From IMG/VR virus record IMGVR_UViG_2744054964_000003: a stretch of 6,990 nucleotides of DNA; one strand, 5' to 3'. The position numbers and the translations under genes were made by a program. The DNA comes from a virus (taxonomy: Duplodnaviria; Heunggongvirae; Uroviricota; Caudoviricetes). Below are positions 1 through 6,990 of the stretch, piece after piece. Each line of letters begins with the position of its first letter. The first letter of the stretch is position 1. A model generated the notes under the pieces. That model was given only the letters and a program-made list of their open reading frames with translations, was not told the DNA's origin and made no database searches.

Positions 1-111
1 CAGCCAGAAAACACCCGACTTAACGCTGTGCTGGATTATATTGACGCGGTGACGGCAACAGATACCAGCACAGCGCCGGATGTTATCTGGCCTGAACTGC
101 CGGAGGCGTAG
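1..111 (+). CDS. Tail fiber assembly protein, C-terminal fragment (5' end lies outside the window)
   Basis: Frame 1 is open from position 1 to TAG at 109-111 and translates to QPENTRLNAVLDYIDAVTATDTSTAPDVIWPELPEA. The ...DTSTAPD..WP..P... ending closely resembles the lambda Tfa C-terminus as I recall it (...VDTSTAPDIEWPAVPVME), and the position directly upstream of FI is where P2 has gene G. Confidence 0.7.
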   Translation, partial: QPENTRLNAVLDYIDAVTATDTSTAPDVIWPELPEA

Positions 112-120
112 GCCATTCAA

Positions 121-165
121 TATCTGGAGCACTGGAAATTTCGACAAGTTCCAGTGCTCCAGATA
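121..165. repeat. Perfect 17-bp inverted repeat (arms 121-137 and 149-165, 11-nt spacer); putative RNA stem-loop or protein-binding palindrome
   Basis: TATCTGGAGCACTGGAA at 121-137 is the exact reverse complement of TTCCAGTGCTCCAGATA at 149-165. It lies 10 nt after the upstream stop codon. No U-tract follows on either strand, so it is not a canonical intrinsic terminator. Confidence 0.8.
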
Positions 166-296
166 ATCGACTGTGTGGGAACAGGCAGGACGATTGCTGG
201 CTGCGAGGGAATCACGTCAACGTGTGGCGCTGATTTTTGATATTGACCTGTCCACGCTCTATAAAAAATTCGCCTCATCAGCGACAAAGAATAAAT

Positions 297-355
297 TGTG
301 CCATCCCTCAGCCAACCGGGACAAATAGCCTGACATCTCCGGCACACATGAAAAT
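297..355 (+). promoter_or_regulatory. Candidate Ogr-dependent late promoter for the FI operon (imperfect activator dyad plus weak -10)
   Basis: P2 late promoters carry a TGT-N12-ACA dyad centred near -55. The only near match upstream of FI is TGT(297-299)-N12-CCA(312-314), one mismatch. A weak -10-like GAAAAT at 350-355 is spaced consistently with it. Assignment is tentative. Confidence 0.25.
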
Positions 356-387
356 ACCACTCACCCATTAACCACGGAGTTAAACGG

Positions 388-6771: not shown

Positions 6772-6990
6772 ATGTTTCATTGTCCTTTATGCCAGCATGC
6801 CGCACATGCGCGTACAAGCCGCTATATCACTGACACGACAAAAGAGCGTTATCACCAGTGTCAGAACGTGAATTGCAGCGCCACGTTCATCACTTATGAG
6901 TCGGTACAGCGATATATCGTGAAGCCGGGAGAAGTCCACGCCGTAAGGCCGCACCCGTTGCCATCAGGGCAGCAAATTATGTGGATGTAA
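6772..6990 (+). CDS. ogr: Ogr, zinc-finger late gene transcriptional activator
   Basis: 72-aa ORF starting MFHCPLCQHAAHARTSRYITDTTKERYHQCQNVNCSATF..., with a C-x2-C-x22-C-x4-C motif; matches P2 Ogr as I recall it. GAGGTG Shine-Dalgarno at 6760-6765, 6 nt before the ATG. Stop TAA at 6988-6990 is the last codon of the window. Confidence 0.9.
   Translation: MFHCPLCQHAAHARTSRYITDTTKERYHQCQNVNCSATFITYESVQRYIVKPGEVHAVRPHPLPSGQQIMWM

Follow-up and report, generated by a model that had tools for sequence, protein, structure and literature searches.

The perfect palindrome at positions 121-165 is very probably the last piece of a convergent, opposite-strand tail-fibre-assembly gene (tfa'), now a pseudogene, and an ordinary relic left by deletion. 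In the alignments, tfa' homology spans the palindrome and ends at 168; from 169 on, the sequence is homologous instead to a serine DNA invertase gene, at its 3' end. Both flanking fragments are already known as pseudogenes in RefSeq, and the kind of system from which they derive is a familiar one. The palindrome is a caution that a statistically striking repeat at an operon boundary may be what is left of a gene on the other strand, here in a tail-fibre inversion switch that has decayed. The window, that is, the whole stretch of 6,990 nt that was analysed, represents the F operon of a P2-like prophage, in which the lengths of FI, FII, E/E', T, U, and D are identical to those in P2, and an intact ogr late-activator gene, starting MFHCPLCQHAAHARTSRYITDTTKERYHQC, occupies 6772-6990 at the window end.

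Each arm of the palindrome, 121-137 (TATCTGGAGCACTGGAA) and 149-165 (TTCCAGTGCTCCAGATA), is the exact reverse complement of the other, and an 11-nt spacer (138-148) separates them. T139-A147 and T140-A146 can pair within this spacer, extending the arms to 20 nt (121-140 and 146-165) with one mismatch and a 5-nt loop. The initial annotation judged such a repeat unlikely by chance, and rightly so, as a perfect 17-bp inverted repeat with up to 20 nt between its arms is expected about 8.5e-6 times in 6990 bp. The folding-energy calculation that it proposed gave −38.6 kcal/mol (z −6.7) for the plus-strand RNA, −37.1 kcal/mol (z −8.0) for the minus-strand RNA, and −20.3 kcal/mol (z −9.6) for DNA, and none of the shuffled sequences was as stable in any of the three. 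The half-site has no further copy elsewhere in the 6990-nt window at up to three mismatches. With regard to the features of an intrinsic terminator, a GC-rich stem-loop is present (17-20 bp stem), and the U-tract is absent 3' of the palindrome on both strands, as had been noted; the plus strand reads AUCGACUGUGUGGG and the minus strand UUGAAUGGCC. The terminator scan left the site uncalled, and the sigma-70 promoter scan found no promoter there. An Rfam search of 1-450 returned no relevant family and no match on 100-200; its sole sub-threshold match was a chance miRNA at 336-417.

The palindrome begins 10 nt past the stop codon of the 3' end of tfa, which occupies 1-111 on the plus strand (stop TAG at 109-111) at the position of P2 gene G. 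This gene end is tfaE-like. It matched Pfam Caudo_TAP (PF02413) over profile positions 99-131 of 131 with an E-value of 2.5e-9 and 37.8 bits, against a cut-off of 22.1; the intact tfa' of relatives scored 105.5 bits. Window 1-111 is alignable with tfaE of the K-12 e14 element, and PGAP names it tfaE or tail fiber assembly protein in identical RefSeq loci. The earlier placement of the palindrome directly after a tail-fibre-assembly gene was thus accurate.

On the minus strand, 83-157 is the tfaP-like stub of tfa', consisting of 24 codons and a stop TAA (85-83), and it shares 29 bp with tfa, an overlap also present in intact cassettes. It is followed by an out-of-frame remainder of 11 nt (158-168) that ends at the deletion junction 168/169. 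The translation of 83-157(−), ALELVEISSAPDIEWPTPPAVQAR followed by the stop, corresponds to LDYLDALELVDTSGAPDIEWPTPPAVQAR and stop, the C-terminus of the intact tfa' of P2 strain T22; the identity of this 24-residue stub was judged by alignment only, not by a Pfam score. The left arm of the palindrome (121-137) comprises the minus-strand codons for (I)SSAPDI within the conserved C-terminal motif of Caudo_TAP, and the right arm (149-165) derives from the codons for YLDALE, without one G between 157 and 158. For CFSAN061761 and other genomes, the PGAP annotation of exactly the coordinates 83-157 reads 'tail fiber assembly protein, incomplete, missing N-terminus'. The initial annotation regarded the palindrome as lying between two operons. 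Its position agrees with this, but by origin it is C-terminal coding sequence of tfa' on the minus strand and not intergenic DNA.

To the right of the junction, 169-328 on the plus strand is the remnant of a serine DNA invertase, of which only the C-terminal helix-turn-helix (HTH) is left. Its open reading frame spans 173-328 and starts VWEQAGRLLAARESRQRVALIFDIDLSTLYKKF. Residues encoded by 170-328 (52 residues) matched Pfam HTH_7, the resolvase HTH, with an E-value of 3.2e-6, and the catalytic domain is absent. In P2 strain T22 and pro483, the matching sequence is the 3' end of the gene annotated as DNA invertase, and PGAP calls the remnant a pseudogene, 'helix-turn-helix domain-containing protein, missing N-terminus'. 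A minus-strand open reading frame at 117-368 (83 aa), which spans the palindrome, was rejected as a gene; it is antisense to the invertase remnant, its sequence is nonsense-like, and it has no PGAP annotation.

The late promoter pF of the FI operon was placed at 292-363 (+) by homology, that is, by transferring its coordinates from the annotated P2 reference through alignment of the conserved region. In that reference, the activator site is at 17555-17583, the transcription start at 17626-17628, and FI at 17652. The transfer puts the activator (Ogr) site of the window at about 292-320 (TTGTGCCATCCCTCAGCCAACCGGGAC), the transcription start at about 363, roughly 25 nt upstream of the FI ATG, and that ATG at 388. 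The promoter region overlaps the final codons of the invertase remnant. About 125 bp separate the palindrome from the activator site, which lies downstream of it; the palindrome is outside the promoter.

In a megablast search of 1-420 against phage genomes, the matches split cleanly at 168. Positions 1-168 matched tail-to-tail pairs of annotated tail-fibre-assembly genes, and 168-420 matched the 'DNA invertase / tail sheath FI' region of P2-like phages, such as P2 strain T22 (KC618326) and pro483. Both ends of an intact cassette have homologous sequence in the window, with the breakpoint at 168/169. The junction reads ...CCAGATAATC/GACTGTG..., with the break at the slash and a microhomology of at most 1 nt. 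Compared with P2 strain T22, the window lacks about 1.26 kb; tfa' is mostly gone, as are the alternative fibre end, the second crossover site, and the catalytic domain of the invertase. Intact cassettes without homology to 112-168 were not seen, nor did the palindrome occur outside tfa' contexts, for example as a mobile repeat, in the E. coli genomes and IMG/VR loci surveyed.

Of 5426 complete E. coli genomes, 29 have the deletion junction, as do six IMG/VR contigs. The perfect palindrome was present in 28-29 of these 5426 genomes, all but one of which carry the deletion. Both fragments are PGAP pseudogenes in the RefSeq genomes with the identical junction, two of which are 100% identical to window 60-260. 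To the right of this junction, the invertase remnant (169-260) exists as at least three haplotypes, those of the window, P2-T22, and strain 3908 types, which are up to about 10% apart (compared with loci L004 and L088). This diversity beside one identical junction suggests that the deletion is old or that recombination has occurred very near the junction. The earlier suggestion of a recombination scar comes close, in that a deletion junction lies 3 bp past the right arm; the palindrome itself is the coding end of tfa'.

The intact relatives of the P2-T22 and pro483 type have the gene order H, tfa(+), tfa'(−) with a 29-bp overlap with tfa, an alternative fibre end (−), an invertase (+), and FI, and P2 strain T22 and pro483 carry this whole cassette with its invertase at the exact position of the window. 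The same layout is found in the e14 P segment of K-12 (stfP-tfaP / tfaE-stfE, pinE), a system classed with the Mu G segment and Gin, the P1 C segment and Cin, and p15B Min. The tail-to-tail junction of tfaE and tfaP in e14 is about 93% identical to window 1-168, and both share the 29-bp overlap and a quasi-palindrome in the 3' end of tfaP. Between its tail-fibre genes and FI, the ancestral prophage presumably had an invertible tail-fibre cassette of the Pin/Gin/Cin type, in the order constant part of H, crossover site, variable H end with tfa, convergent tfa' with the alternative H end, second crossover site, and serine invertase. About 1.26 kb would then have been lost by illegitimate deletion, fusing tfa', at about the 28th codon from its end, to the C-terminal HTH of the invertase.

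In contrast to e14, the cassette here is dead: of tfa' only 24 in-frame codons are left and of the invertase only the HTH, and deletion has also taken the second crossover site. The crossover sites of P2-T22 form a perfect 31-bp inverted repeat (TTCTCCCAAACCAAGG...), whose core is identical to the published core of the e14 P-segment inversion repeat (PMC12529663). No match to this site was detected in the window at up to three mismatches; the window starts downstream of H. Prophages with the same junction have a single orphan crossover site, in H. None of the parts of a functional cassette, namely an intact invertase, paired inverted crossover sites, and a second set of fibre end and assembly gene, was found. 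Since the parts of the switch have been deleted, the fibre would be frozen in one orientation, and the lineage of P2-like prophages in about 0.5% of complete E. coli genomes would represent a frozen host-range switch. The orphan site in H, the crossover-like sequence TTCTCCCAAACCAAGATAATCAAGAA, is located about 1.1 kb upstream of the junction (locus L003 2457-2482, locus L089 6585-6610, and equivalents). H of CFSAN061761 is annotated as broken into fragments.

The initial annotation also recognized this as a position of variable cargo in P2-type phages, and it corresponds to the Z/fun (G-FI) hotspot, which lies between the tail-fibre-assembly gene and pF/FI and for which tail-fibre swaps and DNA invertases have been reported (bioRxiv 10.1101/2024.10.15.618418). 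Here, the hotspot contains two pseudogene stubs and no cargo gene, whereas P2 has fun(Z) and a canonical terminator. The alignment of this junction across relatives, which had been recommended as a check, revealed an imperfect palindrome in intact tfa' alleles and, in the window, a deletion boundary beside the palindrome; P2 itself lacks the palindrome.

We compared the palindrome with its counterparts in intact tfa' alleles, which have an imperfect palindrome at the same place with 15-17 of 17 pairs and one bulged base. This arises in the coding sequence itself, where the codons for YLDALE (TAT CTG GAC GCA CTG GAA) are nearly complementary to those for S(G/S)APDI. The imperfect form with the extra G was found in all intact alleles among the 80 IMG/VR loci surveyed and in K-12 e14; an imperfect palindrome is also present in phage 606R2, P2-T22, and HK97. 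The closest bulged version is that of strain 3908, which has the identical deletion junction and in which only the bulge is left. Three differences separate the window from strain 3908: loss of the bulged G (157/158), A140T, and C146A, and positions 140 and 146 differ from intact alleles. The loss of the G makes the 17-bp arms perfect and shifts the reading frame of tfa', and A140T and C146A jointly add a T-A pair beside the loop. Locus L091 is an intermediate that has T140 with C146 and lacks A146.

The palindrome is perfect only in the decayed lineage and in one frameshifted full-length allele, unlike in e14. This allele is that of Z1323CEC0012, the sole genome with the perfect palindrome (of 28-29) that is without the large deletion; its full-length tfa', in an e14-like prophage, has the same 1-nt loss, is annotated as 'frameshifted', and shares an identical 57-nt segment with the window. 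Strain 3908, conversely, has the deletion without the 1-nt loss. Together, these two genomes indicate that some recombination or recurrence is needed. The tfa' gene of Z1323CEC0012 is located at L005 3524-3957, in a prophage that adjoins dusA and has an intact invertase, and it contains the exact perfect palindrome of the window.

The imperfect palindrome would thus have become a perfect 17-bp and near-perfect 20-bp one by loss of the bulged G and gain of the loop-proximal T140-A146 pair. As judged from the end states, this gain of symmetry may reflect quasi-palindrome correction by intramolecular template switching, a well-documented process in E. coli, through which RNA hairpins are also proposed to arise and to be preserved (PMC7202029, PMC8794818). 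The sister alleles hold the imperfect repeat, and the derived bases are the complement of the opposite arm. The case resembles the Ripley model and the E. coli hotspots of the Lovett lab in its imperfect ancestor and arm-matching derived changes, but it differs in that the changes were sequential rather than one event, and a template-switch mechanism here is deduced. The intermediates in strain 3908 and L091 point to stepwise change, which is equally open to ordinary point mutation or 1-nt deletion. By either route, the locus would be a natural example of an imperfect coding palindrome made perfect once the coding constraint was lost.

Any present-day activity of the palindrome would plausibly be limited to an incidental one, as a possible 3' hairpin of mRNA. 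The palindrome would be transcribed as the 3' tail of the late message of the tail-fibre operon (V-W-J-I-H-G type) and would form a very stable hairpin without a U-tract, which could incidentally impede 3' exonucleases or pause the polymerase. Efficient intrinsic termination is not expected from a hairpin without a U-tract. Like intrinsic terminators and REP-like 3' stem-loops, this is a very stable, GC-containing hairpin directly 3' of a stop codon at an operon boundary; unlike them, it has no U-tract and no Rfam family, is single-copy, and is of coding origin.

A stronger proposal, which we consider unlikely though the best of the alternatives, is that the hairpin was selected as a 3'-end structure of the tail-fibre operon, acting as an exonuclease barrier, a pause or termination site, or an RNase III site. 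Under this proposal, it would have been embedded in the coding end of tfa', kept when tfa' was deleted, and improved once the coding constraint was lifted. Its position and stability are in favour, with −38.6 kcal/mol at 10 nt past the tfa stop, as is the lack of a canonical terminator between tfa and pF, compared with the annotated one after G in P2. The absence of a U-tract counts against it. The terminator scan of the region called weak terminator-like sites only, at 215-229(+), 284-270(−), and 79-65(−), and the first of these is the sole plus-strand candidate between tfa and pF. This site, at 215-238 in the invertase remnant, has a 5-bp stem (CGTCA/TGGCG) followed by CTGATTTTTG. The K-12 Term-seq tables of PMC7815308 have no entries for tfaE, tfaP, stfE, or pinE.

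Sequence comparison within the deletion lineage lends the selection proposal some support. Among nine distinct haplotypes with the deletion, identified by a junction-specific anchor, no substitution was found at the 34 arm positions, whereas variable sites amounted to 12.6% in tfa and 14.4% in the invertase remnant, although this sample is small and mosaic. The stem was never weakened by the three differences from strain 3908; the G loss and C146A add pairing, and A140T alone is neutral. In intact alleles, about 99% of synonymous recodings gave hairpins less stable than the native one (p 0.002-0.012, with an ascertainment bias that inflates these values, as the site had been selected as a palindrome). 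The recoding tests used a codon-usage table, and uniform-codon controls gave the same or stronger results. The substitution-free arms and the stability relative to recodings are a hint of constraint on the stem beyond that of a neutral relic.

Comparison with other tfa' genes was less favourable. Four other tfa' families had no excess structure at the same position (p 0.25-0.8), so a rule that every convergent tfa' embeds a hairpin past the stop of its partner is unsupported. The hairpin was retained in two independent truncations, the P2 type (cut at 168) and the HK97 type (cut at 162, retaining most of the hairpin), but it was removed in two other truncation types (loci L134 and L154). Hence only two of the four types keep it, and the idea that selection keeps the hairpin in every truncation was also rejected. 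Moreover, the HK97 remnant has not been perfected. Proof that the tail-fibre message ends at this hairpin would make the locus a modest case of a regulatory structure exapted from coding sequence.

A second, imperfect palindrome with a 13-bp stem (GCGCTGTGCTGGT / ATCCAGCACAGCG region) lies at 23-76, inside the 3' coding end of tfa. Its folding energy on the minus strand, −30.4 kcal/mol, places it above 99.6% of synonymous recodings in stability (p 0.004). As it starts 8 nt beyond the tfa' stop, it is the mirror image of 121-165, and this also favours selection on an RNA structure. In pairs of tfa and tfa' of the YLDAL type, the last 25 or so codons of each gene may hold a 3'-end or processing hairpin without a U-tract for the transcript of the opposite strand; 121-165 and 23-76 would be the two halves of such an arrangement, the former having survived gene deletion and then been perfected. 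We hold this extension to be improbable, and more so than selection on the 121-165 hairpin by itself.

Slightly less probable still is that the quasi-palindrome or palindrome was a fragile DNA structure that fixed the ends of deletions, the illegitimate joins being promoted by a hairpin or cruciform, by SbcCD cleavage, or by stalled replication at its base. For SbcCD-type instability, 17-bp arms set 11 nt apart are on the short side. In favour of this reading, two independent tfa' truncations have their end points no more than 3 bp from the base of the right arm (P2 type, 168; HK97 type, 162), and the DNA hairpin of −20.3 kcal/mol and the junction microhomology of 1 nt or less fit as well. However, two coincident end points make weak statistics, and other truncations end elsewhere, at about 128 and 133. 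The HK97-type truncation is found in lambdoid phages (locus L096 1612-1665), where a stub of about 50 bp of the same tfa' follows tfa and is cut at the window-equivalent of 162. From its sequence, this looks like independent decay of an inversion cassette.

The proposal of the initial annotation that the palindrome is an operator for a dimeric DNA-binding protein, or else a site for a site-specific recombinase, has the perfect dyad symmetry, the adjoining HTH-coding remnant, and the recombination-prone hotspot in its favour, but we regard it as highly implausible because the half-site is single-copy in the window with no partner, the sequence is accounted for by its coding ancestry, the palindrome is absent from P2, the sole adjacent DNA-binding module is the pseudogene HTH to which the invertase is reduced, pF with its activator site is about 125 bp away, and the true crossover site of the cassette is unrelated and itself absent from the window. 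The marks of a palindromic operator, a cognate DNA-binding protein and/or repeated sites near a promoter, were not found. The preferred reading, that of a tfa' relic left by deletion, accounts for the palindrome by the coding sequence of the lost gene.

The P2 reference has a palindrome of its own in the corresponding interval (locus L216 510-550). It is an unrelated, perfect 11-bp palindrome, TGGCACAGAGT ... ACTCTGTGCCA, 35 nt past the stop of G and without a U-tract, and it lies well upstream of the annotated terminator of the V operon.
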